NCBI GenBank assembly: GCA_044236985.1
Contig: JBIIFW010000001.1
Span: forward strand, 1-32,858
Length of the DNA stretch: 32,858 nucleotides
Direction of reading: 5' to 3'
Origin: Bradymonadia bacterium
Lineage (GTDB): Bacteria; Myxococcota_A; Bradymonadia; REDH01
Within the stretch, counting starts at the first letter, position 1. Each line of letters opens with the position of its first letter. Below are positions 7,011-32,199 of the stretch, piece by piece. Both the position numbers and the translations under genes were made by a program. The notes under the pieces are model-generated. The model worked only from the letters and a program-made list of their open reading frames with translations. It was not told where the DNA came from and did not search any database.

Positions 7011-9034
7011 GGAGTGCGACGGCTCGCCGGCTTGGGGCTGGCGGCTGGTGAGGGCGCCGCAGGCTGCGCGGCGGGCGCGGTGGCCCCACTACCCTCGGGG
7101 CGGGCGACCTCGACCTCCATGTCTGGGTGGTTCTTCTGCGCGAGTTCGGGGCGGAGGCGGAGTGCCTCTTGGGCAAGCGCGTTTGCAACCTGCGTGCGTC
7201 CCATCTTGCCCTCGACATAGGCGAGTCGAATCATCGCGACGGCGTCGGTAGGGTTGAAGAAGAGGACCCGCTCGAAGCGCTCTTTGGCCTTGGGCAGATT
7301 GCCGAGTCGCATGGCGATGATGCCAGATTGGAAGAGCGCGTAGTTGTTCTCGGCGTCTCGCGAGAGCGCCTGCTCCGCGTAGGTCTCCGCTTCGGCGTAA
7401 CGGCCGAGACGGATGAGGGTGATGGCGGTATCGAGCGGGACCTGTGCGCCGAGGCGGGGCACGGTGCAGAGGTGTTTGAGGATGTCGACGACCTCCTCGC
7501 CTCGGCCCTGCTCGACGCGAATGAGAGCGAGGACGCGGAGCGCCTCGGGATGGTTGGGGAAGGGTTTGAGGATCTGGCGCAGGTGCTCCTCTGCGAGGTC
7601 GAACTTCTTGAGGAGCGCGTAGCTGTTGGCGAGGTTCATATGGGCGACGTAGAAGTTGTCTTCGCCAGGCTTGGCGAGGCTCAGCACCTGACCGAGCAGT
7701 CGAACGGCAGGCTCGATCTGGTTGCGGTTGCGGTACTCGAGGGCGAGTTGGAGCCGGGCGCGCTGCGAGGTGGGGAAGGCTTCAAGGACCCGGGCTGCGA
7801 AGACGACGGGGTCGGCGAACTCCTTGTTGCGTGCCTGGACGCGAGCGCCGTAGCCACCGGCGACGAGCGCTGCGATGGTCAGGGCGACAAGTGCGCGGCG
7901 GGGCGGTGCTGCAAAGGCCAGTTCGAGTCCTCGGGCGACGATGACTGCCAGCCCGATGAGCGGCAGATAGAGGTAGTGCTCCGCGAGGAGCTCGTGGTGC
8001 GGGATGATGTGGCTGACGGGCAGCATGGTCACCCCGAAGAAGAGGAGCCCGAAAGCGACGATCGGGGCGCGGGCGACGGCAAAGAGTCCGCCGAGCCAGA
8101 CGAGGCTGACGAAGGCGAGGCCAAGGAGCGCGCGGGGGTCTGAGAAGCCGGCCGCGTTGGGGAAGGCGCTGTAGTCACCGACGAGCCGCGACGGGTAGAC
8201 GATGAGTTCCACGTAGCGTCCGTAGGCAGCCATGACGGTAGCGACATGGGTGTGGAGGCTGTCGCCGCGGATGTTCTGGGAGATCTGGGTCACATGGCCG
8301 ACCTTCACGGCCCAGAGGACGAAGATGATGCTGGCGCCGGTTACGATGACGATGGGGATGAAGAAGCGGTAGACGGCGCCGAAGATGGGTCGCCAGGGGC
8401 TGGGGAAGGTGGTGCCATCGCTGGCTGCAGCCATCATGGGGGTGAGCGCCACCATGAGTAGGAGGGTGGCTGGAACGGTCGCAGCCATCTCTTTGCTGAA
8501 CATGCCGAGCAGAAAACAGCTCGCAGCGACGAGGCCGCCGAACCACTTCCGCAGGGTGCTCTGCGAGGGCTGCGGCGCTGCGAGCAGGGCTGCGACGTAG
8601 AAGAGGGTCACGAGCAGATCGCGGCGCCCAGACATGTAGGTGACGGTGTCGGTGTGGACGGGGTGAATGGCCCAGAGGACGGTGCCGATCGCGGCGGCGC
8701 GCGGGTCGCGGATGATGCGTCGGATGAGGTTGTAGACAAGGAAGGTGGTGATGCCGTGCAGGAGCAGGTTGGTGAGGTGGTAGCCGTAGATCTCTCGTCC
8801 CCAGATGCGGTAGTCGATGGCGAGGGACATGTAGCGGACGGGCCGGTAAGAGCAGGCGTTGATGGTCGGCAGCGTGAGGACCTCGCCCCAGCTGTCGACA
8901 CGCCAGCAAGAGGTGTCGCGCCAGAAGATGAGGTCGTCGAAGGCAAGTCCGGCGTTGAGCGCTGACTGGAAGGTCAACACTGCGAGGAATGCTGCGAGGA
9001 TGCCCGCCAGGAGCGGAATGCGAGAAGGCTGCAT
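7007..9034 (-). CDS. TMTC-like membrane protein: N-terminal multi-TM GT-C-like domain plus C-terminal TPR repeats
   Basis: I place the start at ATG 9034 ('MQPSRIPLLAGILAAFLAVL'); the ORF is open to 9370. 'AFDDLIFW' follows TM1, and about 10 or more TM helices come next. Roughly 250 aa of TPR-like repeats follow ('YVAHMNLANSYALLKKFDLAEEHLRQILKPFPNHPEA...'). The tail is Pro/Ala-rich. Confidence 0.8.
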   Translation of the reverse strand: MQPSRIPLLAGILAAFLAVLTFQSALNAGLAFDDLIFWRDTSCWRVDSWGEVLTLPTINACSYRPVRYMSLAIDYRIWGREIYGYHLTNLLLHGITTFLVYNLIRRIIRDPRAAAIGTVLWAIHPVHTDTVTYMSGRRDLLVTLFYVAALLAAPQPSQSTLRKWFGGLVAASCFLLGMFSKEMAATVPATLLLMVALTPMMAAASDGTTFPSPWRPIFGAVYRFFIPIVIVTGASIIFVLWAVKVGHVTQISQNIRGDSLHTHVATVMAAYGRYVELIVYPSRLVGDYSAFPNAAGFSDPRALLGLAFVSLVWLGGLFAVARAPIVAFGLLFFGVTMLPVSHIIPHHELLAEHYLYLPLIGLAVIVARGLELAFAAPPRRALVALTIAALVAGGYGARVQARNKEFADPVVFAARVLEAFPTSQRARLQLALEYRNRNQIEPAVRLLGQVLSLAKPGEDNFYVAHMNLANSYALLKKFDLAEEHLRQILKPFPNHPEALRVLALIRVEQGRGEEVVDILKHLCTVPRLGAQVPLDTAITLIRLGRYAEAETYAEQALSRDAENNYALFQSGIIAMRLGNLPKAKERFERVLFFNPTDAVAMIRLAYVEGKMGRTQVANALAQEALRLRPELAQKNHPDMEVEVARPEGSGATAPAAQPAAPSPAASPKPASRRTP

Positions 9035-9208
9035 GGGACCGGCGCGGCGAGACGAGTGACGAGCCGACAGTGCGGCTGCGGTGCAGGGTATCGTAGCGGA
9101 ATGGCGACGAAAGGGATAAGAGAAAGCGAAGGCTCGGCGTTGGCGAAAGCGCATCCGATTGCCCGTCGCCCTACCCGGGATCTGCTCTTGTACGCCTTCC
9201 GATTCGAC

Positions 9209-12258: not shown

Positions 12259-14117
12259 GCGAGCAGAGGCAGGAGAGAGCCTCGCCGGAACGCGGGCCTT
12301 CCATCGCTTTCGGCATCTTCGCAGGGCTGCTGCTGCTCGCGCGGCTGCTGCGTCTCTCTGCAGAAGGGCTCTCGGCGAGCTTCGATTCGGCCATCTACAT
12401 CCGGAACCTCTGGGGCATCGCGCAGGGCGACTGGCATAACCCGCTGGTCAACGACCACATCTTCGGCGTTCATGGAAACTGGGTCCTCCTGCTTCTGGCA
12501 CCGCTCGTACGATTCGCCGACCCGGCATTGCTGCTGACGCTGTCGCAGGGCTTGGCGCTAGGCGCGACGGCGGGGCTCCTGCACTACGGGTTCTTGGAGG
12601 CGCTGGGCCAGCGCGCGAGCCGCGGTCGACGGTTGGCGGCGGCGACGCTGCTCAGCGCAGGGCTGCTGGCGGGGCCGGTGGCGATCAACCCATTTCTCTT
12701 CGACCTTCGCCCCGACATGCTGGGGCTCCCGCTGCTGCTCGCTGGTCTTTTGCGTGCACGGCGACAGGGCTTCGATGGTGCAGCACTGGCCTGGATGGGC
12801 GCCGCACTTTTTGTGCGCGAGGACTTTGGGATGGTGATCATCGGTGCGATGGCGACCGCGCCGTTCGGCCGCTCCTTGCTCTCGAACTGGCAGCGGCGCT
12901 GCGGCGTGATCGCGGCTGCGCTGGCCTTCTTCGCAATCTACTGGTTCGGCGTGCGGAGCTGGGTGGCACCGCAGAGCGTCGCCCGCGCAAGCAGCATCGC
13001 GTCGCAGATGCTGGACAACGCGAGCCCGCTGCCGGTGTCGCAGGTCATCGCCTACAAGGCTGAGATTTTGGCGGCGGTGCTGCTGGGCGGCGGACTGCTG
13101 CCGCTCTTCGGTTGGCGGTGGCTGGGCGTTGCAATGCCGGGCCTCGCCTTTCTGCTGATCCAGTCGCGCATGCAGGCCGACCTTCTCGACTTTCACTATG
13201 CGATTTTCGCCCTGCCCGGCTTGGCAATCGCCTCGGTGGATGGCCTCGAACGACTCGTCGCTAGGCCACGTCACGCACCGCTGCTGCTGATCTCAGCGGT
13301 CTGCATGGGCACACTGTTCGCGACGTCGAGCGCGCTTCCGGGTGGCGGGCGCCACTTCGCCTCGCGCGAGGCGGCGCGGAACGACGACGGCTCCCTACGC
13401 CTCACCGCGGATGGGCTGCCGCTCTACGAGGCGATGAATGCGATGGTGGCCGCGCTTCCCGCCAGCGATGGCGTTGCAGTGCCCTTCGCACTCTCTGCGG
13501 GCGCAGCCTCCCGCTCCACCATCGTGACGACGGAGCAGGTGAAACAGTGGGTCTCAAAGGGGGAGAAGTTCCCGCCGGACCTCCACTGGGTGGTGCTTTT
13601 CGGCAAGGACTTCGAGGGGCTCGGGAGCCGGCTGGTGAGCGAGCACGGCCTTCATTTGGTGACAACCGTGGATCAATCGCTCGCGGTGCTCACCGATCGC
13701 CCTGTACCGACAAACTGGGAGGCCTTCAGCCTTGCTGCGACGGGGTGCGCGCCCTGGGCGGAGTGGCCGACTGCAGGCGTTCGCCTCTGCACACCCGATG
13801 CTCGGCGTCCCGGCTGGTGGGTGGAGCGGACTGCGGGCGCAACGCTGCCTGCGCCAACCGACCTCTTCCTCGAGCCCGCCGGCGCCGCGCCCGTTCTCTT
13901 TCGAGGGGTGTCGGGGCTTGTTGCACTTTCGTCACTTCCCGTCGGTCGCGCGCTTCCTGTTCGCGGCGCGGACGGTTCGGGTGTATCGTTCAACGCAGCG
14001 GTGCTCGCAGCGCAAGGTCGTGCGATCTCCTGCCGCTCCACGGACGGCTCGAGCGGCCTTCGCTGCAACCTCCGCTCCATGCCTCCGACTCCGCCCGCTC
14101 AAGGCAAAGACCCATGA
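12255..14117 (+). CDS. Polytopic membrane protein, DUF2079-like (GT-C-like candidate)
   Basis: ATG 12255 overlaps the upstream TGA (ATGA). 'SFDSAIYIRNLWGIAQGDWHNPL...FGVHGNWVLLLLAPL' resembles the DUF2079 N-terminal signature; this is from memory and needs an HMM check. Many TM helices precede a ~200-aa soluble C-terminus. Confidence 0.65.
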   Translation: MSEQRQERASPERGPSIAFGIFAGLLLLARLLRLSAEGLSASFDSAIYIRNLWGIAQGDWHNPLVNDHIFGVHGNWVLLLLAPLVRFADPALLLTLSQGLALGATAGLLHYGFLEALGQRASRGRRLAAATLLSAGLLAGPVAINPFLFDLRPDMLGLPLLLAGLLRARRQGFDGAALAWMGAALFVREDFGMVIIGAMATAPFGRSLLSNWQRRCGVIAAALAFFAIYWFGVRSWVAPQSVARASSIASQMLDNASPLPVSQVIAYKAEILAAVLLGGGLLPLFGWRWLGVAMPGLAFLLIQSRMQADLLDFHYAIFALPGLAIASVDGLERLVARPRHAPLLLISAVCMGTLFATSSALPGGGRHFASREAARNDDGSLRLTADGLPLYEAMNAMVAALPASDGVAVPFALSAGAASRSTIVTTEQVKQWVSKGEKFPPDLHWVVLFGKDFEGLGSRLVSEHGLHLVTTVDQSLAVLTDRPVPTNWEAFSLAATGCAPWAEWPTAGVRLCTPDARRPGWWVERTAGATLPAPTDLFLEPAGAAPVLFRGVSGLVALSSLPVGRALPVRGADGSGVSFNAAVLAAQGRAISCRSTDGSSGLRCNLRSMPPTPPAQGKDP

Positions 14118-15565
14118 AGTTCAAGACGGCCCGAAGCCTCTTCCGCCCAGCTCTCCTCGCCGGCCTTGCACTTGGCACCTTCGCCACGCCCGCCGCCGTC
14201 TCCTCACACGGCATCATGGGTCACATGCATGTCACGGGGTGGGCCATCGAGAACCTGCCGCCAGGCGAGCTTCGCGACATGCTCACCGACCCCGAGGTGA
14301 TGAACGCTGCCATCTTCGGCTCCGCCTACACCGACTCCGGCTACTGGCCGAGGGGTTCTGTGGAGTCGCAGGCCCGAGCCTATGGCGAGCACACGCACTG
14401 GGAGCCATTCATTGAGGACTTCGTCACCTGGATCCGGGTGAACGATCCGCCTCCGTGGACCTCCCTCGAGTCCAAGAAGCGGTTCGCATTCATGCTGGGC
14501 TGCGCATCGCACGGCCTTCAGGACGAGATCTTCGACTCCATCTTCCTCGACCAGGTGGACTACCACGACAACGGCAACCAGGACATCGCCGACCCGGCGA
14601 CAGACGGCTTCCTCGCCATTGATGGCCACCTTCGGTTCATGCCGACGGAGTACTATCCGAAGGACACCGTTCTTGAGCTCTATCAGACGCTCAATATGGG
14701 CATCTCGGAAGAGACCGTCCGCTACGGCCTCGACGCAATGGAGACGCTCTATGTGAACCCCCGCAGCGGCTACGCAGTGGCGGCCGGCTTCGGGCGTCAG
14801 CACGGTGCCAAGCTCGGTTGGACGCGGGCCCACTACTTCGACGCCGATGTGCCGGGCAGCATCCGCAGCGAGATCCTTCCGACCATGCGCTACATGATCG
14901 CGCTCTGGGAGCGGGTGCAGGGGCAAAACTCCGCCGACAACCCGGTGCTCTTTCAGTACCCCGACGACGGCCGGTTCCTGCGCTCGCTCGACCCCGCAGA
15001 CCCCGCCTCATGGGTGACCATCGTCACTGCGGCGGCGGCGAAGGCCGACTTTGTAATGCCCGACTGGAAGCTCGACGACGGCACGCCGATTGCCTTCTCC
15101 AAGCACGGCACACACTGGGGTGGTCCCGATCAGTTTGCCCGTGTCATGCAGCTGCGCCCGTTGGAGCAGCTCCCCGCCGACCGCGCGTCCACCGTCAGCT
15201 GGAACTTCAACGGGCCGCTTATCAACGGTGAGGTCTCGACGGCCTCGGTGGTATTGCCCGTCCGGACCACCTGCATCGAAGGCAGCGGCGCATGCCCCAT
15301 CGGCTGCGATGCTCGCACCGGGTTCACATCACCCGAAGAGGTCGGAGCGGCTCTCGGCCGTCCGGCCTCCTGCCTTCCCGAACAAGAGGGCAGCGGCAGC
15401 GGCGCTGAAGTTGCTCCGACCGAGAGCAAGAAGGGCGACGGCGGCGGATGCCAAACGAGCAAGCCTGCCTCTGCCTGGGGCCTGCTCTGGTTCGCTGCGG
15501 CGCTGCTCGGGCTGCGGTCAGCGCGGTCGGCGCGCCGCCACCAGGATGCTGCCGCCAAAGGCTAA
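14114..15565 (+). CDS. Secreted zinc-dependent phospholipase C-like protein with MYXO-CTERM-like sorting tail
   Basis: ATG 14114 overlaps the upstream TGA (ATGA). The signal peptide is 'MKFKTARSLFRPALLAGLALGTFATPAAVSS'. His-rich metal motifs are 'HGIMGHMHVTGW', 'EHTHWEPF' and 'CASHGLQDEIFD'. The C-terminal 'GGGCQTSKPASAWGLLWFAAALLGLRSARSARRH' reads as Cys, then a hydrophobic helix, then an Arg cluster. Confidence 0.6.
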   Translation: MKFKTARSLFRPALLAGLALGTFATPAAVSSHGIMGHMHVTGWAIENLPPGELRDMLTDPEVMNAAIFGSAYTDSGYWPRGSVESQARAYGEHTHWEPFIEDFVTWIRVNDPPPWTSLESKKRFAFMLGCASHGLQDEIFDSIFLDQVDYHDNGNQDIADPATDGFLAIDGHLRFMPTEYYPKDTVLELYQTLNMGISEETVRYGLDAMETLYVNPRSGYAVAAGFGRQHGAKLGWTRAHYFDADVPGSIRSEILPTMRYMIALWERVQGQNSADNPVLFQYPDDGRFLRSLDPADPASWVTIVTAAAAKADFVMPDWKLDDGTPIAFSKHGTHWGGPDQFARVMQLRPLEQLPADRASTVSWNFNGPLINGEVSTASVVLPVRTTCIEGSGACPIGCDARTGFTSPEEVGAALGRPASCLPEQEGSGSGAEVAPTESKKGDGGGCQTSKPASAWGLLWFAAALLGLRSARSARRHQDAAAKG

Positions 15566-16363
15566 CTCTTCGCCTCGCGCGACAGCATCAACCTCGCCTG
15601 AGAGCAGGGAGCGGATGGCGCGATCGGCCAGCCCGGGTTTGTGGTCGCGCGCAACCGACGCTGCCGTCGGAGCGGCTGGCGCAATGCCGGCGCGGTAGGG
15701 GAGCGCGCGCAAGAGGCCGATGAGCGGCGGCAGCGGCCGGAAGAAATGGCCGAGGTAGCACCTCTCGAAGCCTGCCTCTTCGAGCAGTCGCGACATCGAG
15801 GCTCCTGTGTAGCGGCGGTGGTGACCTGCGGCGGCATCTTCGTGTGACCAGAGCAGCGGGTAGGCGGGTACCGAGATGAAGAGGAGCCCGCCCGGGCGGA
15901 GCGCACGACGGGTCTCTCGCAAGAACCCAACATCGTCGGCGATGTGCTCGACCACATCGAACATCCCCGCGCCGGCAAGGCATCCGTCGCGAAACTGGCA
16001 GCTGTCGAGGGTACCCTCGACGACGGAGGAGAGTCCGCGAGCATGGGCGCGGGCGGCGCCCTGCGGCCCGGGTTCCACGAGCAGCGTGGGGATCCCCAGG
16101 GCCTCGACGGCCAGTGCCACGAAGCCATTTCCTCCGCCGATATCGGCGAAGGGCGCGCCACCAAGTTCCTCGCGGTAACGAGCAATCAGCGCCGTGAGGA
16201 CCGCGTTGCGGTGGTTGAACCAGAACGAGTTCTCCTCCACAGCGAAGCAGGAAGCGTTTCCATCCGCGGGATAGGAGATCGCCTCCGCCTCCGGCGGGCG
16301 CCAGATACCATCGACACCGCGTTCGATGGACGATGCAAACTGTGTGAGGTCGAGGCTCTTCAC
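15518..16363 (-). CDS. Class I SAM-dependent methyltransferase (paralog of 5488-6252)
   Basis: 'FADIGGGNGF' is motif I. 'MFDVVEHI' and 'LLFISVPAYPLLWSHEDAAAGHHRRY' align block by block with the 5488-6252 product. The 3' end overlaps the convergent gene by 48 nt. Confidence 0.8.
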   Translation of the reverse strand: MKSLDLTQFASSIERGVDGIWRPPEAEAISYPADGNASCFAVEENSFWFNHRNAVLTALIARYREELGGAPFADIGGGNGFVALAVEALGIPTLLVEPGPQGAARAHARGLSSVVEGTLDSCQFRDGCLAGAGMFDVVEHIADDVGFLRETRRALRPGGLLFISVPAYPLLWSHEDAAAGHHRRYTGASMSRLLEEAGFERCYLGHFFRPLPPLIGLLRALPYRAGIAPAAPTAASVARDHKPGLADRAIRSLLSGEVDAVARGEELAFGGSILVAARRPR

Positions 16364-16463
16364 CCAATCGGGGTACCATCCGGCTCATGCGAAGGCAACC
16401 TGCGCGGCGGGCCCTCGGTCGCTTGGCTTGCACCTGCATTCCGAAGGCAGTAGCCCTGCGCTT

Positions 16464-16622
16464 GATTTGGTTCTCTCCCTGTTCTGAGGGCGGGCCAAGC
16501 GGGAATCTGGTGAGACTCCAGAACTGACGCGCAGCGGTGTGAGCGATACCCCCTCACCACGACACTGGGACAACCGGGAAGTCGAGGGGGCCGAGAGCTC
16601 GAGTCCGAAGACCGGCCAGATC
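16464..16622 (+). promoter_or_regulatory. Cobalamin (B12) riboswitch aptamer
   Basis: The core 'AAGCGGGAATCTGGTGAGACTCCAGAACTGACGCGCAGCGGTGTGA' matches the conserved GGGAA..GGTG.AA..CC...C.G.C.CGCA.C.GT.A block. The B12 box is 'GAGTCCGAAGACCGGCC' at 16601-16617. A closing P1 helix pairs GATTTGG (16464-16470) with CCAGATC (16616-16622). The element lies directly upstream of a TonB-dependent receptor. Confidence 0.85.
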
Positions 16623-16684
16623 CTCCGTGAAAGCGGAGCGTACGACCTCCCTCGCGCTCGGGGACATCGCTTAAGGACAACGCG

Positions 16685-18781
16685 TTGCAGTTCCTCTTCG
16701 CCGATGCGCTTTGCGCAGCCGTTCTAAGCGTTGCCGTGGCATCGGCAGACCCGGAGGTCGTGCCGCCGATCGATGGCGTCGCGCAGGCCGAGGCCGAAGG
16801 TTCAGGCGAGCCGCAGCCGGCGCCGCAGCCCCGAACAGGCGCACTCCTGCCCAACACCCGCACCGACGGCGCCCCCTTCGCCTACCACCTTGGTTGGAGC
16901 GGTCAGGAGGCTGCTCGCAGCTCGCTCACCGCATCGCGCACGACCTTCTCGGACCTGGGAAGAGAGCTCGAGCGGATGCCTAGCCTCAGGCTGCGCGAGA
17001 CAGGCCTTCCCGGGTCGAGCAGTTTCATCTCCATCCGCGGCTCGGCGCCCGCGCAGGTCGCGGTGGTGCTCGATGGTCTTCCGCTTACCTCGGGCTTTGC
17101 AGCTGCCTTCGACTGGTCGCTGCTGCCGCCCGACACGGTGCAATCGGCCCGTGTCTACCGCGAAGCCGCACCGCTGGAGGCTGGCACGATGGGCGGCGGT
17201 GGGCTCATCGAGCTCACGGCGGGCGATACCGAGGCCGAGGGCCTCTGGGCGGCCGCGAGTGCCGGCGCCTGGGGCACACAGCGGCTGTCAGGGGGCGTCA
17301 GCCTGCGAACCGCAGATCACTGGGTGGGGCTCTCTGCCTCTCACCGCGCCACCGACGGCGACTACCGCTTCTTCAACAACGGCGGGACCCCCTCAAACGA
17401 GGCCGACGACGGGTATGGGCACCGCACGAACAACCAGCGATCGCAGTGGGCCACCCTCGGCGCCTGGCGCTGGTTCGGCGACCACCAGACCATCGCCCTC
17501 ACCGCGCTTGCGACCGGCCTCGAACAGCAGATCCCCGGCTACGAACAGGCGCCGAACCAGGCGCTTGGCCAGCGACACGACCGGCTCCTCGGCGCGCTCC
17601 GGCACGAGTGGCGCTACGATGCCTTCAGCCTGCAGACGAGCCTCGGTGGAGACGCCGTGACCCTGGAGCTCGACGACCCGCTCGGCGAGCGCGCTGCCTT
17701 TGGAGGAGAGAGCGATGCGCAGGACCGGAGGGTGGTCGCGGTGCTCCAACCCACGCTCAAACTCCCGGCGGCGCTACGGCTCTCCACGCAGGCGGAGTTC
17801 ACCGGAGAGTGGCTTGACGGGGGCAGCGGAGGCGCCACCGAGCGCATCGCGCGCAGGCTCAGCCGTGCCGTGGGCGCCGAGCTCAGTGGCGACCTCTTCG
17901 GCGGCCGTTGGCTGCTCCTCCATCGGTTAACGGACAGTCGAGACAGCGCCGGTGGAGAAGATGACAGTTCATCGCTGGCGTCGAGCGCGGTGATGGTGCG
18001 TCTGCCGCTGGTCCGGCTTCCGAGTTTCACACTCACAGCCCGCTGGAACGCTGCGGCGGCGGAGCGACTCCCGACCTTTCTGGAGCGGTTTGGCGGGACC
18101 GACAATGTGGTGGCGAACCCCGCACTGCGCCCGGAATCGCGTATCGGAAGCGACAGCAGTCTCGAGGTGGAAACCCACCTCGCACACACGGCCATCGATG
18201 CGGTCTGGAGCAGCTTCCTTCGCAGCACCGATGATCTGATCGTGATGCTGCCCAACAGCCAGCAGGCGACGCGGGCCGAGAACATCGGAGAGACGGTCGC
18301 GCTCGGCCACGAGTTGAGCCTGCGGCTGCGCTGGAGCAGCGGCACGGAGGTCGCCTTCGCAGGAGCCTACTCCGACGCGGTCGATGCGACGCAGGACAGC
18401 GTCCGGCGCGGCAAGCAGATCCCCCTGCACCCGTCTTGGACCGGCGCCGGCGAGGTTTCGCAGTTGGTCGAAACACCGGCAGGAGAGGTGACGATCGCGG
18501 TGCCGTGGCGCGCTGCCTCCACCTTCTTTGTGGACGGGGCCAACCTCTCCGCACGGCCGGCCGTCACAGAGTTTGGTGCTCGCGTCGCCTTCGCTCCCAA
18601 GGCGCTGCGCGGGCTGGCGGTGGAGGCGCGGGTGGAGAACATCACAGACCGCCTTTACGGCCAGGTGGAACAGCTCTCCGCCGGCGAGACCAGCGCCGTG
18701 CCGTGGGCCACTTCGGACTTTGTCGGGCACCCGCTTCCCGGCCGCGCGCTCTACCTCACCGTCAGCTACGCGTCGCCATGA
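16685..18781 (+). CDS. btuB: TonB-dependent outer-membrane receptor, probable cobalamin receptor (assigned by riboswitch context)
   Basis: TTG 16685 is the only in-frame start after stop 16628-16630, with AAGGA 7 nt upstream. The signal peptide is 'LFADALCAAVLSVAVASA'. Plug-domain blocks are 'ISIRGSAPAQVAVVLDGLPL'. The long beta-barrel region has alternating patterns. The btuB symbol rests only on the upstream B12 riboswitch. Confidence 0.8.
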   Translation: MQFLFADALCAAVLSVAVASADPEVVPPIDGVAQAEAEGSGEPQPAPQPRTGALLPNTRTDGAPFAYHLGWSGQEAARSSLTASRTTFSDLGRELERMPSLRLRETGLPGSSSFISIRGSAPAQVAVVLDGLPLTSGFAAAFDWSLLPPDTVQSARVYREAAPLEAGTMGGGGLIELTAGDTEAEGLWAAASAGAWGTQRLSGGVSLRTADHWVGLSASHRATDGDYRFFNNGGTPSNEADDGYGHRTNNQRSQWATLGAWRWFGDHQTIALTALATGLEQQIPGYEQAPNQALGQRHDRLLGALRHEWRYDAFSLQTSLGGDAVTLELDDPLGERAAFGGESDAQDRRVVAVLQPTLKLPAALRLSTQAEFTGEWLDGGSGGATERIARRLSRAVGAELSGDLFGGRWLLLHRLTDSRDSAGGEDDSSSLASSAVMVRLPLVRLPSFTLTARWNAAAAERLPTFLERFGGTDNVVANPALRPESRIGSDSSLEVETHLAHTAIDAVWSSFLRSTDDLIVMLPNSQQATRAENIGETVALGHELSLRLRWSSGTEVAFAGAYSDAVDATQDSVRRGKQIPLHPSWTGAGEVSQLVETPAGEVTIAVPWRAASTFFVDGANLSARPAVTEFGARVAFAPKALRGLAVEARVENITDRLYGQVEQLSAGETSAVPWATSDFVGHPLPGRALYLTVSYASP

Positions 18782-19983
18782 GCAGACCCATCGCAGCCCC
18801 ATTCTTGCTCGCCGCGGCGGTGCTCGCAATCGCCTTTTCGGCCGCCTGCCAGGTTGAGCTTGATGCGGCGGACGATGCAGGCTCCGACATCTCTGAAGGC
18901 TCTGGGAGCGGAGATGGGAGAGACCTCTGTGCCCTTGTGATGACGAGCGATTTTTCGCAGACCGCAGCGCTCCACACGGCGCGCTACCGTCGCGGCGAAC
19001 TGAGGCTTTCTGAGCCGCTGACCTCCGTCAGCACAGACGCCGTCCTGCGCGGAAACGACCGCATCGTAGCCGTCCTCAACCGATACCCCGCAGCCTACGT
19101 TCAGCGCATCGATCCCGCGGCGGGCTTCGCCACCGTTTGGGAGCGCGCCCTGCCGACGGGCAGCAATCCGTCGGACATCTGGATTGCCGACGATGGGCGC
19201 GCGGTCATTTCGCTCTACGGTGCAGGCCGGCCCGTCGCCGGCGGAGAGCTGATGGAGGTCAACCTGCTCGCAGCTTCGGAGGCGGACTGGATTGTGCGCC
19301 GCCGCTCGCTCGCCGCATGGTCAGAGGCCGATGGCAACCCGGATGCGTCGCAACTCATCCCCTTCGGCAGCCTGCTGATTGTCGTCCTGCAGCGCCTGGA
19401 CAACTACCCGAGCTGCAGCGAAGGAGGACGGAGCGCACTGCTCGCGCTCGACGCTGCAACACTCGAGCCGGTCGGCCACTTCGGCGGCAATGCCATGCTC
19501 ACCTTGGCGGGCTGCAACGCCTACTCCGCGGCGCTGCATGCAGACGGTCGGCTTATGGTGGCGCTCACAGGTCGCTACCAATGGAGCGGAGACCGGAGCA
19601 ACGATGGAGGAATCGAGGCAATCGACCTCGCGCAGGGAGTGTCGCTGGGCTGGCTGAGCCGCGAGGGAGAGCTGGCTGCCGGCGACATCACCGAGGTGGC
19701 TGCGGCCCGCGATGGCGCCACCCTGTGGGTGACCTCGTCGGCAGATTTTGACGGCTCGGTTTTCCGCGCTGAACGCGACGGCGCCACCTCTGGCCCGCTC
19801 TGGAGTGGCTCCAATCTCTTCGATATCGCCCCACAGGACGATGCGCTCTGGGTTGCCAACCGATCGAGCCTCTCGGCGGCGGTCGTGCTGCTGGATGGAG
19901 CAGGCGCAGAGCTCGGTCGTGCCATTCCTCCCGCACCGCCGATCGCCTTCCTGCCGCTTGAAGCGTCCGGCCTTTGCCCCTAG
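18778..19983 (+). CDS. Lipoprotein, repeat-rich (possible beta-propeller), function unknown
   Basis: ATG 18778 overlaps the receptor stop (ATGA). The lipobox is 'AFSAAC'. An acidic Ser/Gly linker follows, then recurring strand-like blocks: 'NDRIVAVLNRY', 'ADDGRAVISLYG', 'GSLLIVVLQRL', 'HADGRLMVALTG', 'ARDGATLWVTSS' and 'QDDALWVANRS'. Confidence 0.7.
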   Translation: MSRPIAAPFLLAAAVLAIAFSAACQVELDAADDAGSDISEGSGSGDGRDLCALVMTSDFSQTAALHTARYRRGELRLSEPLTSVSTDAVLRGNDRIVAVLNRYPAAYVQRIDPAAGFATVWERALPTGSNPSDIWIADDGRAVISLYGAGRPVAGGELMEVNLLAASEADWIVRRRSLAAWSEADGNPDASQLIPFGSLLIVVLQRLDNYPSCSEGGRSALLALDAATLEPVGHFGGNAMLTLAGCNAYSAALHADGRLMVALTGRYQWSGDRSNDGGIEAIDLAQGVSLGWLSREGELAAGDITEVAAARDGATLWVTSSADFDGSVFRAERDGATSGPLWSGSNLFDIAPQDDALWVANRSSLSAAVVLLDGAGAELGRAIPPAPPIAFLPLEASGLCP

Positions 19984-20015: not shown

Positions 20016-21401
20016 ATGCGCACGCTCCTCCTGATCGCCTTGCTCATGCCACTCTGTGGGGCCTGCTCCGGTAGCATGAGCAGCACCAACGCGGAGGGCT
20101 CTGCCGCGGGCAGCGGCTCCGGTTCGGGAGAGGGCTCCGGCCCCGACGAGGTCGCCGACGCAGCGCTGCCCGACACAGCGCCCGCTGCCGACACCGGCGA
20201 GCCCCTTGGCTCGGCCGATACCGACACAGACGCCGACACCGATGCAGAGGGCTCGGCGGAACCCGATACCGCACCCCCGTCCTGCGGGCTCGGCCGACGC
20301 CCGGTGACCTTCGGCGCCGACATCGTCGTCGGCATGATCGATGCTCCGCTGCCGCTACCACGGTGCGCCGCTGCCGCCTTCACGGGTCTGCTCTCGAGCG
20401 GCACCACCTGGCGGCTCGAGGTCGCAGACCTGCCCTCGGACGCGCGGCTCTTTGCCTACGGCCCGGCCTTCTTCGCGACGGCTGCAGCCGGCGATGCGCC
20501 GCCCCCGCTGGCCTCCACAGACTTCGCAGGGACGGGCTCCTCCTTGGAGCTCCTGGTGCGACCCGCCTTCTCCGGCGAGGTGGTCGTGGTGGTGGAGCGC
20601 GACGACCTCTACGCCGAGCAGACGGCACGGGTCACCGTCACCTGCGTGGAGGGCTGCGACCTCGCCGCAACAAGGTTCCCCGTGATGCTGGTGCACGGCT
20701 ACTTTGGGACCGACACCTACTTCAGCCTGCTCGACTACTTCCACGACGTGCCGGACCCGTTGCGTGCGGCAGGGTTCGAGGTCCGCACGCCGACAACCGA
20801 CGCCTTCAACTGGTCGGAGATTCGCGGCGAGCAGCTGGCAGAACAGCTCGACGCTCTCCTGGTTGAGACTGGTGCGCGCAAGGTCAACATGATCGCGCAC
20901 AGCCAGGGTGGCATGGACGCTCGTGTGGTGATTTCGGGCTTGGGGTATGCCGAGCGGGTCGCCTCGCTGACGACGATCGCGACGCCTCACCGCGGCACGC
21001 CGCTCGCCGTCGCAGACATTGCATCGGTGCAGGACTTCGGCCCGGACTACCTCGAGGGCACCTTCAATCCCGCCTACCCCGACAGCGCGGAGGTGAAGTA
21101 CTTCTCCTGGTCGGCACGCACCTGTGGCCTCCTCGAGTTCGGCTGTCAGCGAGAGCGAGATGGAGAGATTGCGGATGCGATTCTCGCCCTCTTCCAGACC
21201 TCGCTCACGCTCCGCGTAGGCGACAACGACGGCTTCGTCCCGACCGCATCGATGGTGTGGGGCGAGTTGCTCGGCACCCTCTCTGCCGACCACCTGGACG
21301 AGGTTGGACAGATTGCCGATGGCTCGCCGCGGAACGACCCCTTCGACCACCGGGCCTTCTACCTGAGCGAGCTGCGCCGGCTCTCTGTCGCAGGTTACTG
21401 A
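20016..21401 (+). CDS. Lipoprotein with C-terminal family-I-type lipase (alpha/beta hydrolase) domain
   Basis: I place the start at ATG 20016. The lipobox is 'LMPLCGAC', followed by an acidic low-complexity linker (GSGSGSGEGSGPDE, DTDTDADTDAEGS). 'FPVMLVHGYFG', the nucleophile elbow 'IAHSQGG', 'NDGFV' and 'ADHLDEVGQ' reproduce the Ser/Asp/His blocks of Pseudomonas/Burkholderia-type lipases. Confidence 0.8.
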   Translation: MRTLLLIALLMPLCGACSGSMSSTNAEGSAAGSGSGSGEGSGPDEVADAALPDTAPAADTGEPLGSADTDTDADTDAEGSAEPDTAPPSCGLGRRPVTFGADIVVGMIDAPLPLPRCAAAAFTGLLSSGTTWRLEVADLPSDARLFAYGPAFFATAAAGDAPPPLASTDFAGTGSSLELLVRPAFSGEVVVVVERDDLYAEQTARVTVTCVEGCDLAATRFPVMLVHGYFGTDTYFSLLDYFHDVPDPLRAAGFEVRTPTTDAFNWSEIRGEQLAEQLDALLVETGARKVNMIAHSQGGMDARVVISGLGYAERVASLTTIATPHRGTPLAVADIASVQDFGPDYLEGTFNPAYPDSAEVKYFSWSARTCGLLEFGCQRERDGEIADAILALFQTSLTLRVGDNDGFVPTASMVWGELLGTLSADHLDEVGQIADGSPRNDPFDHRAFYLSELRRLSVAGY

Positions 21402-24317: not shown

Positions 24318-24330
24318 GTCGCACAACCCT

Positions 24331-24731: not shown

Positions 24732-24763
24732 CCTCCTCGTAACCGAAACTCGGTTCGGAGGTC
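24730..24763 (+). promoter_or_regulatory. 5'-leader hairpin sequestering the feoA Shine-Dalgarno
   Basis: GACCTCC (24730-24736) pairs with GGAGGTC (24757-24763), and AACCGA (24741-24746) pairs with TCGGTT (24750-24755). The 3' arm contains GGAGG, 5 nt before ATG 24767. Confidence 0.45.
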
Positions 24764-24766
24764 ATC

Positions 24767-24982: not shown

Positions 24983-25007
24983 GACCGATGCGCGCTGAGG
25001 AGGGCCG

Positions 25008-27230: not shown

Positions 27231-27433
27231 CGGAGACGGTCCAGAGCGGCCTGGTTGCCCTGCTCGTCGTCGGCGCAGCGGTGGCGAGCCTTCTGCGGCT
27301 TCGGAGTCAGGGTGCAGGCAGCTCCAGCTGTTCCAAGTGCAGCGGCTGCGGGAGCGAAGACCCTGCCTGCGTGCGTGAACTCACCGCGAAGCTCCGCAGC
27401 AATGCGACGCCTCCCTCCGAACCACACCCCTAG
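27227..27433 (+). CDS. FeoB-associated Cys-rich small membrane protein
   Basis: ATG 27227 overlaps the feoB TGA (ATGA). The 68-aa product has one TM ('GLVALLVVGAAVASLL') followed by 'SSSCSKCSGCGSEDPAC'. This architecture is characteristic of the FeoB-associated Cys-rich family. Confidence 0.7.
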   Translation: MTETVQSGLVALLVVGAAVASLLRLRSQGAGSSSCSKCSGCGSEDPACVRELTAKLRSNATPPSEPHP

Positions 27434-27441
27434 AGGCACCC

Positions 27442-27873
27442 ATGTTCATGACGCTGCTCTTGGTCGCCTTCCTTCTCTCGAGCGCTGTCTCATGGGGGAT
27501 CTCACGGGCCTTCTCGCAGCCGATGCAGAGCATCCTTGCCCGCATCATTGCAGACCCCATCAGCGAGGCGTGGGTTCGCTATCTCAAGTTTGCCATCCTT
27601 GTCGTCGGCATCTCGTCGGGCGTCCGCATCAGCGAGATTGAGCGCTACATCTCGCCGAACAACTGGCAGGAGAACCCGGAGATTCTGGCGCTGACGGGTG
27701 AGCGTTGGGTGCTCGAGATCTATCGCACTGTCATCGAGACGCTGCAGGGCGTCGCGATGATGCTGCTGGCCTTCTTCGTCATCTCGCTCGTGGCCTTCGT
27801 CGTCCTGCGTATCTCGGAGCTTCGTCAGGCCGCACGGACAGCACCCACCGAGAAGCGGGCGCCCGAAGCCTAG
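27442..27873 (+). CDS. Small membrane protein, function unknown (possible feo operon member)
   Basis: ATG 27442 lies 8 nt after the previous stop. The product has an N-terminal TM ('MTLLLVAFLLSSAV'), a second hydrophobic stretch ('FAILVVGISSG') and a C-terminal TM ('VAMMLLAFFVISLVAFVVL'). Codon bias is good. I recognise no family. Confidence 0.6.
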   Translation: MFMTLLLVAFLLSSAVSWGISRAFSQPMQSILARIIADPISEAWVRYLKFAILVVGISSGVRISEIERYISPNNWQENPEILALTGERWVLEIYRTVIETLQGVAMMLLAFFVISLVAFVVLRISELRQAARTAPTEKRAPEA

Positions 27874-29663
27874 CCGAGGAAGCCGAAGAGGCCGGCGTCG
27901 GCGAGCTCTGCCAGCCAGGCCTCACCGCTCTCGGGCCAAGAGCCGTCGTCATGCGCCTCGAGCCAGCGTTCGAGCCGTCCGGCAGCGTCGCCAGCCGAGA
28001 CCGAGCCGCTGCGCGCATCGTTCCAGAGTTCGACGACAACGCGAGGCAGCGGAAGGATTGCGACCTGTCCGCGCACGCTGCCCACCATGAGTCCGCCATA
28101 CTCCTCGTCCGGCATGGTGGGCAGCTCGACCTCGGCGCCGTCGTCTTCGGCGCGGGCCAGCAGGAGCGTCCACGGCAGGTCGAGGCAGCGGAAGGCAGAG
28201 GAGCCGAGGAGGCGGCTGTTGTCGTCTGCTGGAGCGGTCTCGCAGAGGTGCTCCACGTCGTCGTCGCGTTGCGACAGCGTGGCGATGACCACCTCTAGCG
28301 CGAACCGTTCGCGAACGGCCTCGGTGACTTCGGGGTCGGTGGTGAGCCAGCGATGAAGACGGGTGTCGAGCGGTTCGCGCGAGAGAAAGACTCCCCGCTG
28401 CCAGGCTGCTGCGAGAGCTGCTGCGCCCGCCTCACTGCACCAGTTCGCCGTCGGCGGCGAGAGGCTCTCGATTCCCTCCAGCAGGGTCTCGGAGGGGCCT
28501 GCTGTAACGTAACCCGTTGCGGCCAGCCGCGGATCGCAGGCGATGAGCGCAGCCTGCAGCGCAGTGCCTCCAGCGACGGGCGCCGCGAAGGCTTCGCGAA
28601 GCGCCGGCAGCAGCCCGCGGAACTGCTTCCAACCGAGCGTGGCGGCTCGGCTGGCGAGGTCCCAGATGCGGCGGCGGTCGCGCGCCGTGCCTGTCGCATC
28701 GGCATCGACGACGAGCTCTCCGCACAGGAGCTGATCGCCGATCGTCTCGAGATGGTCGATGTAGGCGGCGGCATCGCTGAAGTAGTCCCGGCCGGCCTCG
28801 AGTAGCTGTCCGAAGAGGATGCCGTGCGACCGCTCGGTGAGACGAGCGTAGTGGCCAACGACATAGGCACGGGCATCGCTCGACGGTGCGAGGAAGGCAT
28901 GCGTTGTCTCGATGATACGACGCTCGTCGAGCTCGCGGCGCACCGTCTCGAACTCGGTGGCTGCGTGGTCGAGACCCCAGCGGAAGTTGGCGACGGTCGC
29001 CAGCAGGCGCGACCGAAGGTCTGCCTCCGATTCGGTCAGCCAGACGGCTTCGGCAAGCGATGCCTGCCGGCTGGCGGCGGTGTTGGCGCGATCGAAGCCG
29101 CGGCTCTGCAGACGGCAGCACTCATCAAAGCCGTACCAGAGCGCGACCGGCAGCGTCTCGTTGATGCGGCTGGTTGCGTAGAGTTCGAACCGGCTCATGC
29201 CATCGGCCCAGAAGAAGCCGCAGGCGCGATGGAGGAGCTCATGCGGCGCCCACTTCGCCACATGGTTGGGGTTGTAGGTGGCGAAGGGCTCGTCCTGCTT
29301 GAAGGACTGGTACTTCCCGATGTGGAGCACGCCAGCATCCCAGACCCCGTTGAGCAGGTTCTCTACCTCGTCTCCTCCACGCTGCGACTCCTCCGAGGCG
29401 AGGGGGGCGCGGGCCTCGTGCTGGACGGTGGTCGTGCCCGATTGCAGCGCCAGGCAGACGGTGCGGAAGGCGGCCGGCGAGGCGACCACCTCACCGATGG
29501 GGAGGCCGGCCATCACAGCAACCGCGGCGCCCTTCTCCAGCGCCACAGGGCGGAGCGCGAGCATCCAGCCGACGAGCGCATCGGAGAGCGACGCATCGTC
29601 GAGCTCACGGAGCGCCGCGAGTGAAGGAAGGGAGAGGCCTGGGACCGTGAAGGGGAGGGTCAT
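27870..29663 (-). CDS. Hypothetical 597-aa cytoplasmic protein with an HExxH motif
   Basis: This is a long ORF with strong GC3 bias and no signal peptide or TM. 'NPNHVAKWAPHELLHRACGFFW' contains HELLH (nt 29229-29243, minus strand). The rest is Ala/Leu/Arg-rich and helical-looking. I recognise no family. Confidence 0.7.
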   Translation of the reverse strand: MTLPFTVPGLSLPSLAALRELDDASLSDALVGWMLALRPVALEKGAAVAVMAGLPIGEVVASPAAFRTVCLALQSGTTTVQHEARAPLASEESQRGGDEVENLLNGVWDAGVLHIGKYQSFKQDEPFATYNPNHVAKWAPHELLHRACGFFWADGMSRFELYATSRINETLPVALWYGFDECCRLQSRGFDRANTAASRQASLAEAVWLTESEADLRSRLLATVANFRWGLDHAATEFETVRRELDERRIIETTHAFLAPSSDARAYVVGHYARLTERSHGILFGQLLEAGRDYFSDAAAYIDHLETIGDQLLCGELVVDADATGTARDRRRIWDLASRAATLGWKQFRGLLPALREAFAAPVAGGTALQAALIACDPRLAATGYVTAGPSETLLEGIESLSPPTANWCSEAGAAALAAAWQRGVFLSREPLDTRLHRWLTTDPEVTEAVRERFALEVVIATLSQRDDDVEHLCETAPADDNSRLLGSSAFRCLDLPWTLLLARAEDDGAEVELPTMPDEEYGGLMVGSVRGQVAILPLPRVVVELWNDARSGSVSAGDAAGRLERWLEAHDDGSWPESGEAWLAELADAGLFGFLG

Positions 29664-29826
29664 GTGGCAGCAGTGCGTGCGGTGGCTTGGAGGTGGCGGC
29701 GCTTCTCGCCCCGGCAGGCTGCCAAGTCAAGGCAGTGTGCGGTTTGCAGAATGGTGCGTGACGGGGTAGGCGACACGGCATCAACATCGTGGGGCCTGTA
29801 TGAATCGTGACCGTTTGGAGAGGGAG

Positions 29827-30828: not shown

Positions 30829-30918
30829 GAATTGTTCGCCGAAAATTTGCCTCGGCGATCGCAGTGAGGCCTAACGGCTCCGTTCCAAATTGGTGGAGAA
30901 CGGAAGCAGGGAGGCATC

Positions 30919-32199
30919 ATGGCTGGTAAGCGCGGAGAGCAGGATTTTGGTTGGGATGATACGGAAGAGGAGTTCTTCACCTCGGGCGATCTCAAGCCGG
31001 TGGAGCAGAGCGGCTCGGTGTCGGGCATGCAGTCTGAGCCCGTGTCGACGGCGATCCGCGTGGCCCCGGCCGTGCCCACCTGGGCGCTGGCGGTCATTGG
31101 CGTCTCCGTCTGCGGTAACCTCGCGCTCGGCCTGCACATGCTCGCGAGCCGCGACTCCAACCTCGACAGCAACGCTGCCTCCAAGAAGGGTGCCGCGCCT
31201 CTCGCCGGCGCCATGATCGCGGGCTCGACGCTCGAGATTCTGCCAGAAGAGGGCTTCGCAGAAGGCTCGGGCAGCGGCGAAGGATTTGTCGCCGAGGGCT
31301 CGGGCAGCGGCGAAGGATTTGTCGCCGAGGGCTCCGGCAGCGGCGAAGGGTTTGTCGCCGAGGGCTCCGGCAGCGGCGATCCCTCGCTCGAGGTAGCCCG
31401 TGTCGATTCGGGCACCGTCGTACCCGCCGACTTCTCGACCGGCCACGCCATCATCGCCGGCTCCATTCCTGCTTCGCTTGGCCCCATTGCAGGTGGCCGC
31501 GGCGACGCCCTCTCGGCCGCCTTCAACCGCCTCGTCATGTGGGACCTCGATGTCCGCCGCGACCTCCGCGCCGGCGACGAGGCCTCCGTGGCCTGGCAGG
31601 AGACGAACGACAACGCGCAGGTGGTCATCGGTGCCGCCTCCTACAAGTCGATTAAGTTCAAGAAGTCGCTCACGGCCTTCCGCTTCCAGGCCACGGGAGA
31701 CACCCTGCCCCGCTACTGGTCGGCCGACGGCAAAGAGGTGGAATTCCGTCTCAACAACAGCCCCATCGCGGACTACGATCAGGTCACGAGCCTCCTCAAG
31801 GACCGCCCGACCCACCACGGCATGGACTTCAAGACCCCCGTCGGAACCCCCATCACGTCGCCCTGGGCGGGCGTCGTCACCAAGGCCAACTGGAACTGGG
31901 GTTCCAACGGCAACTGCCTCGAGATCGCCTTCTCGAACGGCAACACCGGCAAGTTCCTCCACCTGAGCGAGAACAAGGTCAAGGCGGGCGACCGCATCAA
32001 GGCCGGTGAGGTCATCGCCCTGTCTGGCAACACGGGCCGCTCGACCGGCCCCCACCTGCACTACCAGCTCGAGAAGGCCGGCGAGATCCTCGACCCCGTC
32101 ACGGTGCACGGAACCTTCCGCCGCGAGCTCCCCGAGACCGACCGCGCCCGCTTCCAGGCCGAAGTGGGTCGCATGAGCGCCACGCTCGCTTCGAAGTAG
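30919..32199 (+). CDS. M23 (LytM-type) metallopeptidase with N-terminal TM anchor and repeat linker
   Basis: GGGAGG lies upstream of ATG 30919. The TM is 'WALAVIGVSVCGNLALGLHML'. 'HHGMDFKTPVGTPITSPWAGVV' (HxxxD) and 'GNTGRSTGPHLHYQL' (HxH) are the M23 zinc and catalytic motifs. Confidence 0.88.
   Translation: MAGKRGEQDFGWDDTEEEFFTSGDLKPVEQSGSVSGMQSEPVSTAIRVAPAVPTWALAVIGVSVCGNLALGLHMLASRDSNLDSNAASKKGAAPLAGAMIAGSTLEILPEEGFAEGSGSGEGFVAEGSGSGEGFVAEGSGSGEGFVAEGSGSGDPSLEVARVDSGTVVPADFSTGHAIIAGSIPASLGPIAGGRGDALSAAFNRLVMWDLDVRRDLRAGDEASVAWQETNDNAQVVIGAASYKSIKFKKSLTAFRFQATGDTLPRYWSADGKEVEFRLNNSPIADYDQVTSLLKDRPTHHGMDFKTPVGTPITSPWAGVVTKANWNWGSNGNCLEIAFSNGNTGKFLHLSENKVKAGDRIKAGEVIALSGNTGRSTGPHLHYQLEKAGEILDPVTVHGTFRRELPETDRARFQAEVGRMSATLASK
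31258..31380 (+). repeat. In-frame 33-bp tandem repeat, about 3.7 copies, inside the M23 peptidase gene
   Basis: The units are 31258-31290, 31291-31323, 31324-31356 and a partial unit at 31357-31380. The consensus is GCCGAGGGCTCSGGCAGCGGCGAAGGRTTTGTC, with 1-4 substitutions per unit. It encodes (A)EGSGSGEGFV x3 followed by AEGSGSGD. Confidence 0.95.

Follow-up and report, generated by a model that had tools for sequence, protein, structure and literature searches.

A short Glu-Gly-Ser motif in linkers of exported proteins, a candidate acceptor site for periplasmic modification in a lineage related to Myxococcota

The EGSG sites and the proteins that carry them

The stretch of DNA analysed here, hereafter the window, comprises 32,858 nucleotides of a metagenomic contig (JBIIFW010000001.1) with 67% GC, and the element in question is the tetrapeptide Glu-Gly-Ser-Gly (EGSG), which recurs in several of the exported proteins that it encodes. 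Contigs 99.7% identical to the window were present in several freshwater-lake assemblies, and the named homologs of its lipase (g15) and M23 peptidase (g21) came from Myxococcales and Bradymonadaceae metagenome-assembled genomes (MAGs). The nearest TopA proteins among 185,579 species representatives shared 52-54% identity with that of the window, and Myxococcota MAGs topped the list. With the MYXO-CTERM-like tail of one protein as further evidence, the host is therefore an uncultured freshwater lineage related to Myxococcota.

EGSG was located by a six-frame scan of the window. A preliminary description of this DNA had placed the motif in six exported proteins, and the scan recovered every one of its positions. 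The protein labels given there held as well. The g7 product is polytopic and carries TPR repeats; g11 encodes a phospholipase C (PLC)-like protein with a weak Zn-phospholipase C match and a MYXO-CTERM-like tail; g13 encodes a TonB-dependent receptor (TBDR) with a Plug domain match; g14 and g15 encode lipoproteins with lipoboxes, the latter an alpha/beta-hydrolase (lipase); and g21 encodes the M23 peptidase. The sites, with one related DGSG and the extent of g14, are as follows.

7085..7096 (-), EGSG in the C-terminal tail of g7 ('RPEGSGAT'), immediately C-terminal to the TPR domain and ahead of a hypervariable Ala/Pro tail
13971..13982 (+), DGSG in the C-terminal part of g10 (DUF2079)
15278..15289 (+), EGSG in g11, flanked by Cys ('TTC-I-EGSG-A-CPIGC')
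15386..15403 (+), EGSGSG in the g11 linker directly before the GGGC/hydrophobic/Arg-rich sorting tail, with EGSG at 15386-15397
16796..16807 (+), EGSG in the N-terminal extension of g13, 3' of the signal peptide
18778-19983 (+), g14, a lipoprotein of 401 amino acids with a lipobox and no Pfam or NCBIfam family match
18895..18912 (+), EGSGSG in g14, 16 residues after the lipobox Cys, with EGSG at 18895-18906
20094..20258 (+), three units in the g15 linker: EGSA at 20094-20105, a (GS)n run and then EGSG at 20106-20141 (EGSG itself at 20130-20141), and EGSA at 20247-20258
31256..31379 (+), a 33-nucleotide tandem repeat in g21, 3.8 copies long, encoding four AEGSGSGEGFV units that separate the membrane anchor from the catalytic domain, with EGSG starting at 31261, 31294, 31327 and 31360 (+)

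In total, ten EGSG sites were found in 6 of the approximately 25 window proteins, compared with 0.28 expected from the amino-acid frequencies of the window over 10,302 residues. The rough estimate of well under one chance occurrence was thus confirmed by computation. When each protein was shuffled internally 5,000 times, at most 4 proteins contained EGSG. Counting the four M23 tandem copies as one event leaves seven independent sites. The site at 15278-15289 ('CIEGSGACP') in g11 was absent from the preliminary description; it probably lies inside a folded disulfide loop, and its conservation is inseparable from constraint on that fold. The DGSG of g10 was rejected as a true site and is probably incidental, its acidic residue varying among orthologs (D, A, E, A; absent in L105).

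All ten EGSG hits were in coding frames of real genes with family matches and a high signature of GC at third codon positions (GC3). The codons of the motif differed among the six proteins: Glu was encoded by GAA or GAG, Gly by GGC, GGT or GGG, and Ser by AGC, AGT, TCA, TCT, TCC or TCG. With such codon differences from site to site, and with the motif Ser drawn from both serine codon families, the motif is encoded at the protein level and is not a DNA repeat, and a shared repeat, microsatellite or mobile sequence was rejected as its source; the M23 copies are the only DNA tandem repeat among the sites. More broadly, the recurrence might be an artefact of chance, of a shared repeat or microsatellite, or of translation in a wrong frame. 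The GGCAGC hexamer runs at 15389-15403, the true tandem repeat of the M23 array and the many spurious open reading frames that high-GC genomes yield would all fit such an origin. It is contradicted by the gene frames and GC3 of the ten hits, by the codon differences, by the expectation of 0.28 and the shuffle maximum of 4 proteins, by orthologous sites conserved in five species, and by an unrelated control set in which 10 occurrences were observed for 9.5 expected. We regard an artefact as extremely improbable, and this explanation was refuted except in that the four M23 copies represent one event.

Several side observations concern the ends of these proteins. The C-terminus of g11 (15430-15565) runs from GGGC through a hydrophobic helix to an Arg-rich tail, resembling a MYXO-CTERM sorting tag, and the sole database match of this tail was to NCBIfam NF045523, below threshold (E = 0.093). 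It is the Cys-rich segment upstream of the sorting tail that holds the additional EGSG site. The convergent 3' ends of g11 (+) and the methyltransferase gene g12 (-) overlap by 48 nucleotides (15518-15565). The TBDR gene g13 has a TTG start and a signal peptide (16685-16750) that lacks a basic n-region and contains Asp (MQFLFADALCAAVL...), and this unusual N-terminus is also conserved among orthologs. The g14 gene is kept in synteny between the TBDR and lipase genes in all five species compared.

Residue order, conservation and distribution of the motif

Sixteen disorder-like segments, comprising 405 residues when the M23 repeat is counted as a single unit, were marked by a rule blind to the motif. 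EGSG occurred in 6 of these segments, whereas each of its eleven anagrams occurred in 0-2. Shuffling within the segments gave a mean of 0.12 proteins with EGSG, and 0 of 20,000 shuffles reached six. Glu preceded the Gly-Ser-Gly runs of exported-protein linkers in seven of nine cases, with Asp and Ala preceding one each. A pure effect of linker composition was ruled out by the anagram and within-linker shuffle tests, and the residue order of the motif matters.

Conservation was analysed across five syntenic species, represented by the window and the loci L087, L105, L106 and L107. The motif was found at the orthologous place in all five for g7, g11 (both sites), g13 and g15, while the residues around it were rewritten throughout. 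In the TBDR linker, compared among 15 orthologs with 71-96% overall identity, Glu and Ser were invariant (15/15) and each Gly was retained in 14/15, the single variants being EASG and EGSA. The motif columns had a mean conservation of 0.97 versus 0.58 for the other 31 columns, and EGSG was the most conserved four-column window of a linker that is otherwise hypervariable with insertions and deletions (indels). The motif codons varied synonymously among these orthologs, Ser being encoded by TCA, TCG, TCC or TCT. In the lipase, the second EGS was invariant in 13 distinct orthologs, even with the indel-prone (GS)n run before it and a +1 residue after it that varied between G, E and A, and the third unit took the form [E/D]GSAE. 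The g7 tail kept RP[E/D]GSG in L105, L106 and L107; the linker before the g11 sorting tail held 1-3 EGS[G/S/A] units among orthologs with the remaining linker rewritten; and L087, L106 and L107 retained the g14 motif, with codon changes that were synonymous. From these alignments, the conserved unit is [E/D]-G-S-[G/A/S], sometimes followed by Glu, with EGSG as its commonest form, and purifying selection holds the motif while the linker around it changes by substitutions and indels.

The g21 repeat varied in copy number, with 4 copies in the window, 3 in the slightly more distant orthologs P0001-P0005 and 2 in the 99.7% identical contigs L001 and L002, where a collapse of the repeat during short-read assembly is possible. 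Some of its units read EASGSG. The M23 peptidase was modelled with AlphaFold2 from 65 sequences, and the model comprised a membrane helix at residues 54-79 and a catalytic domain at 173-424 with a predicted local distance difference test score (pLDDT) above 90. The pLDDT was below 50 across residues 84-167, a region that takes in all four repeats, and the motif thus lies in disordered linkers. The corresponding model of the TBDR had a mean pLDDT of 53, too poor to judge its N-terminal linker.

Each protein was assigned manually to a compartment on the evidence of signal peptide, lipobox or membrane helices, in a small sample consisting of the window and 10 kb each of upstream (L099) and downstream (L104) sequence from sister contigs. 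EGSG occurred in 6/9 proteins with an exported or periplasm-exposed part versus 0/31 cytoplasmic or inner-membrane proteins (Fisher p = 2.2e-5). The tripeptide EGS alone occurred 12 times in 4,280 exported residues and 0 times in the other 11,424 residues. The preliminary description had found the motif in no cytoplasmic protein of the window and had called for a count of exported against cytoplasmic proteins; the former was confirmed and extends to the 20 kb of flanking sequence, and the latter, run regionally on approximately 40 proteins, gave the ratio above.

Outside this lineage the motif behaved differently. Loci of named genomes anchored on TopA had no synteny with the window and served only as a control set. 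In 80 unrelated bacterial loci, many of them high-GC (359,561 residues), EGSG was observed 10 times for 9.5 expected and DGSG 10 times for 8.5, and all hits were in folded cytoplasmic contexts such as the P-loop of thymidylate kinase. A universal trait of exported or high-GC proteins was ruled out by this control. In distant homologs of the M23 peptidase, the lipase, the TBDR and g7, the motif occurred in linkers at about chance level, and the linkers at equivalent positions consisted of other acidic sequence rich in Asp, Ala, Thr and Pro. On the sequences compared, the motif is therefore specific to this lineage. A metagenome scan anchored on the lipase returned 6 loci only, one of which, L095, lacked synteny and was uninformative on the co-occurrence of the motif and the g7 cluster.

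A second motif-bearing lineage was encountered in one further sample. Its scaffold L090 (71% GC) encodes an M23 peptidase (P0009) 55% identical to that of the window, with two GEGSGSGA units in different flanks. Lipoproteins of L090 that were new to the comparison carried DGSGD just after the lipobox, and the motif was present in none of its five cytoplasmic proteins. L109, from the same sample and with matching GC, encodes a g7 homolog (P0234) with 57-62% identity, whose C-terminal tail, otherwise unrelated to that of g7, holds AGSGEGSG and AGSGSG.

The second, descriptive suggestion of the preliminary note, that these segments are lineage-specific flexible linkers, fits the chance-level counts in control loci and distant homologs and the pLDDT below 50 of the M23 repeats. 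It leads to an explanation in which the motif belongs to a lineage-specific manner of building flexible, acidic and protease-resistant spacers without specific recognition. Such spacers would tether lipoproteins, span the periplasm and separate domains, their pattern being kept by biophysical preference and short divergence while slippage alters the number of units. Consistent with this, every site is in a low-complexity disordered segment, the linkers are indel-prone, the M23 repeat is a variable-number tandem repeat (2, 3 or 4 copies), Glu gives way to other residues in some repeat units and in the g14 protein of L105, and more distant orthologs carry entirely different acidic linkers (Asp, Ala, Thr, Pro) at the same positions. 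Disordered N-terminal linkers are furthermore known in outer-membrane lipoproteins, where an artificial GS repeat can substitute (10.1101/2021.01.05.425367). Spacers of this kind would not, however, be expected to show the ordered motif in 6 segments versus 0-2 for its anagrams and 0/20,000 shuffles, nor invariant Glu and Ser in flanks with a conservation of 0.2-0.6 while the motif codons are synonymously saturated. The reappearance of the motif in rewritten linkers at 55-62% identity (P0009 and P0234) is likewise unexpected, and site-specific codons oppose an origin by slippage for most sites. Spacers without recognition are, in our view, rather unlikely, although they rank next after an acceptor site. 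Because residue order matters, Glu and Ser are conserved within hypervariable flanks, and the known function of lipoprotein linkers is independent of sequence, the evidence favours a recognised motif over a mere spacer.

The motif follows signal peptides, lipoboxes, a membrane anchor and, in a GT-C protein, the TPR domain, and it also precedes a C-terminal sorting tag. As the motif is ordered, selectively maintained, position-independent and copy-variable within disordered exported segments, it would be best described as a recognition site. It could be a short linear motif with a role other than modification, namely processing by a periplasmic protease or the docking of an envelope partner of the TPR, PDZ or chaperone type. 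The same evidence of conservation applies to such a role, the positions after signal peptides and before the C-terminal sorting tag suit maturation or docking junctions, and a TPR domain, a binder of extended peptides, is encoded next door. Conversely, four variable-number copies in the M23 peptidase and 2-3 copies elsewhere would be unusual for a cleavage or docking site, placement at N-terminal, internal and C-terminal positions opposes a sorting signal, and no candidate protease or partner was identified. The tandem and multiple copies therefore disfavour a sorting signal or a single cleavage site, and we consider a protease site or docking peptide improbable.

The glycan-type cluster and the case for a possible acceptor site

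The first genes of the window, g1-g12, form a glycan-type cluster that includes an epimerase (g1), three methyltransferases, a family 2 glycosyltransferase (GT2, g6), a GT4 (g9), a HAD-like protein (g8), the PLC-like g11 and four large polytopic membrane proteins, namely g3, g4, g7 with its TPR repeats, and g10 (DUF2079). The members that bear on modification are listed below.

1621-3507 (+), g3, and 3504-5348 (-), g4, large polytopic proteins with 8-9 predicted helices and no Pfam or NCBIfam family
6261..7010 (+), g6, GT2 with a Pfam Glycos_transf_2 match, conserved beside the g7 homolog in L109
7007..9034 (-), g7, polytopic GT-C glycosyltransferase of the TMTC/PMT clan with a C-terminal TPR domain, the candidate modifying enzyme

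The membrane half of g7 had no Pfam match of its own, falling below the PMT_2 and DUF1736 thresholds, and found 69,052 representative clusters at E <= 1e-3. Among 39 aligned members of the g7 family, 16 matched PMT_2, 11 matched TMTC_DUF1736 and 37 had TPRs. Membership of g7 in the TMTC/PMT GT-C clan is accordingly assigned by transitive homology only. Searches of the PDB with g7 and its family profile were dominated by TPR matches and were uninformative on the GT-C domain. The motifs of TMTC proteins were taken from published definitions (PMC7801869, Table 4). M1, the 'DD' of the first extracytoplasmic loop, corresponds to D33-D34 ('AFDDLIF'), invariant in the 39-member alignment. M2 (SHKSYRP) is partial, with 'CSYRP' at 61-65 in which Y63 and R64 are conserved and the His-Lys pair is absent. 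M3 (RxD) is represented by R137/D139, and M4 (KE(T/Q)xxT) by 'KEMAAT' at 181-186 with K181 and E182 invariant. In M5 (DW) and M7 (ERxxY) single residues are altered, to 'DY' at 287-288 (Trp to Tyr) and 'EHYLY' at 352-356 (Arg to His). The coincidence of family-invariant residues with M1-M4 (M2 in part), together with the PMT_2 and DUF1736 matches of homologs, bears out the earlier designation of g7 as a GT-C/TPR protein. Its TPR repeats span residues ~430-640, and this domain is predicted to be periplasmic by analogy with TMTC topology.

Sub-threshold NCBIfam matches of g6 were to PgfS, PpgS and the ArnC-type PRK10714.1 (undecaprenyl-phosphate 4-deoxy-4-formamido-L-arabinose transferase), so that g6 could be the synthase of a polyprenyl-phosphate-sugar donor for periplasmic GT-C enzymes. 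A faint match of g4 to an archaeal STT3-type oligosaccharyltransferase (E = 0.038) was seen, and g3 and g4 may be further GT-C-like enzymes. In L109, P0234 is encoded within a cluster of a methyltransferase, a GT2, the g7 homolog, a HAD-like protein, a DUF2079 protein and a GT4. The motif and the g5-g10 core thus co-occur in both lineages examined, which, with two lineages only, lends weak support to a connection. As a separate observation at L109 1-5160, the g5-g10 core adjoins genes for an ATP-grasp protein, a DegT-type aminotransferase, a Polysacc_synt_2-type dehydratase, a methyltransferase and another GT2, which hints that the sugar handled by this cluster is a modified amino sugar.

The interpretation that we place first, although tentatively and with somewhat less than even confidence, is that the motif is an acceptor site for periplasmic modification of its serine, with O-glycosylation as the leading candidate. 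Consistent with O-glycosylation, the candidate Ser acceptor is confined to segments beyond the cytoplasmic membrane and is invariant at the TBDR and lipase sites. Some periplasmic component would recognise [E/D]-G-S-[G/A/S], and the motif would mark the invariant serine as acceptor of a sugar transferred from a lipid-linked donor. A plausible transferase would be g7, whose TPR domain could dock the extended acidic Gly-Ser peptide and whose donor could be supplied by the adjacent GT2 g6. Tandem or multiple copies (four in the M23 peptidase, three in the lipase and 2-3 in the PLC-like protein) might then give rise to multiply modified, mucin-like spacers. A more specific version, in which [E/D]-G-S-[G/A] is the sequon of a new general O-glycosylation system with g7 installing the sugar, its TPR domain reading the peptide and g6 making the polyprenyl-phosphate sugar, is doubtful.

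The preliminary proposal that the segments serve as acceptors for the neighbouring GT-C/TPR machinery therefore stands in part. An ordered motif that appears to be recognised, the placement of g7 in the TMTC/PMT clan and the recurrence of the cluster support it, whereas modification of the motif serines and the action of g7 on them are what we infer. A number of observations weigh against an acceptor site. The compartment test covers approximately 40 proteins of one genomic region and approximately 22 of a second lineage. Some M23 repeat units read AAGSGSG or ATGSGSG, with Glu gone, three M23 orthologs are without any EGSG, and g14 of L105 lacks the Glu (AGSGAGSGDG); the motif is therefore dispensable at some sites. 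Many O-glycosylation systems accept both Ser and Thr, and no Ser-to-Thr exchange was seen in the motif. The targets of eukaryotic TMTCs are folded cadherin domains and not linkers. Very large and widely distributed, the g7 family contrasts with a motif restricted to one lineage, and the adjacency of g7 and the motif carries little weight because the motif-bearing genes are scattered among housekeeping genes. Pfam and NCBIfam matches of the window proteins included no Wzy_C/PglL-type O-oligosaccharyltransferase and no GT14 or related family. Finally, the products of g1-g12 could instead act on pilin or on a polysaccharide, which would be equally good targets. Directly upstream of the window, a type IV pilus cluster (two N_methyl pilins, PilR/PilS, PilC, PilT and PilB; L099, 1-8463) abuts the g1 epimerase, and its pilins contain no [DE]GSG. 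There is a further likeness between g1-g12 and systems for periplasmic glycan modification made up of a GT2, a flippase and a GT-C enzyme (PMC11127046).

An acceptor site of this kind would have several relatives and differs from each of them. The general O-glycosylation sequon of Bacteroidota, D-(S/T)-(A/I/L/V/M/T), was shown by mass spectrometry, and the proteins that carry it are modified after export. Like the motif described here, it is very short, has an acid near the acceptor hydroxyl and occurs in many unrelated periplasmic, lipoprotein and outer-membrane proteins. Unlike it, the Bacteroidota sequon belongs to another phylum, has the acid at -1 and a hydrophobic residue at +1, and accepts Thr, and the present motif is known from sequence alone. 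The targets of PglL/PilO-type enzymes in Neisseria, Burkholderia and Acinetobacter are Ala/Pro/Ser-rich with no strict order, and the enzyme carries Wzy_C. They share with the present sites a Ser within flexible, low-complexity regions of lipoproteins and exported proteins, often with several sites per linker; in contrast, the motif here is ordered and a Wzy_C domain was detected in no window protein. Among PMT/TMTC O-mannosyltransferases, the shared features are the membrane domain of g7, M1-M4 and the architecture of GT-C followed by TPR, whereas g7 lies below the Pfam thresholds for PMT_2 and DUF1736 and its M5 and M7 are altered. Actinobacterial Pmt, a member of this group that acts on secreted lipoproteins, is reported to modify Ser/Thr-rich linkers in exported proteins (PMC8698208). 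In the literature searched, no known substrate was found for any bacterial TMTC-like enzyme.

The closest likeness in sequence form is to eukaryotic glycosaminoglycan (GAG) attachment sites. Xylosyltransferase acts at -SG- or -SA-, with the acidic residues mostly N-terminal to it and the site always in a disordered or low-complexity region (PMC10424144). The variants found here (EGSG, EGSA, EASG and DGSG) closely fit the rule for sites of XYLT1/2 in bikunin, decorin and syndecan. The GAG system differs in being eukaryotic and Golgi-based, its GT14 enzyme being soluble and using UDP-xylose, and a GT14 match was found in no window protein; the likeness is one of sequence form only. A literature search found no bacterial counterpart of a GAG-type site and nothing bacterial on an EGSG or DGSG motif. 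As regards lipoproteins, the linkers of E. coli outer-membrane lipoproteins depend on length and disorder and not on sequence (10.1101/2021.01.05.425367). The motif of g14 and g15 is similarly placed, in a disordered tether just after the lipobox, but it is ordered and conserved, and 4/6 of the proteins (g7, g11, g13 and g21) are not lipoproteins. The known role of lipoprotein linkers thus fails to explain the conservation, being independent of sequence and inapplicable to four of the six proteins.

We therefore place the motif, on its sequence characteristics, among the short motifs that serve for acceptance or recognition in exported-protein linkers, as a bacterial example that seems new to the literature searched. 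The candidate is sharply defined, with an invariant Ser, an acid at -2, and occurrence in approximately two thirds of the sampled exported proteins and in none of the cytoplasmic ones. Eukaryotes have many well-known examples of short linear motifs conserved within disordered regions; for the bacterial envelope, to our knowledge, descriptions are few, and the majority proved to be glycosylation sequons. Should the motif be a sequon used by g7, it would provide the first substrate and sequon for a bacterial enzyme family of ~69,000 sequence clusters and a bacterial parallel to eukaryotic proteoglycan attachment sites. Glycoprotein prediction would then be possible in uncultured bacteria related to Myxococcota. 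Should the serines be unmodified, the motif would still reveal clear selection on residue order inside linkers thought to be free in sequence.

Other genes of the window

Downstream of g15, the window encodes in order topA, infA, feoAB, two genes of unknown function, an EEP-family lipoprotein (g20), the M23 peptidase (g21) and malQ. One further gene was delimited as follows.

27870-29663 (-), g19, 597 amino acids, no Pfam or NCBIfam family match

The C-terminus of TopA (24192-24282) is a Lys/Ala/Pro-rich tail (AKPAAKKAPAKK...) built from imperfect 27-nucleotide and 15-nucleotide tandem repeats. In the 257-kb scaffold L087, a seeming loss of feoB at ~15000-17290 was traced to an assembly gap with a 100-N run, where tblastn still matches feoB residues 1-644.

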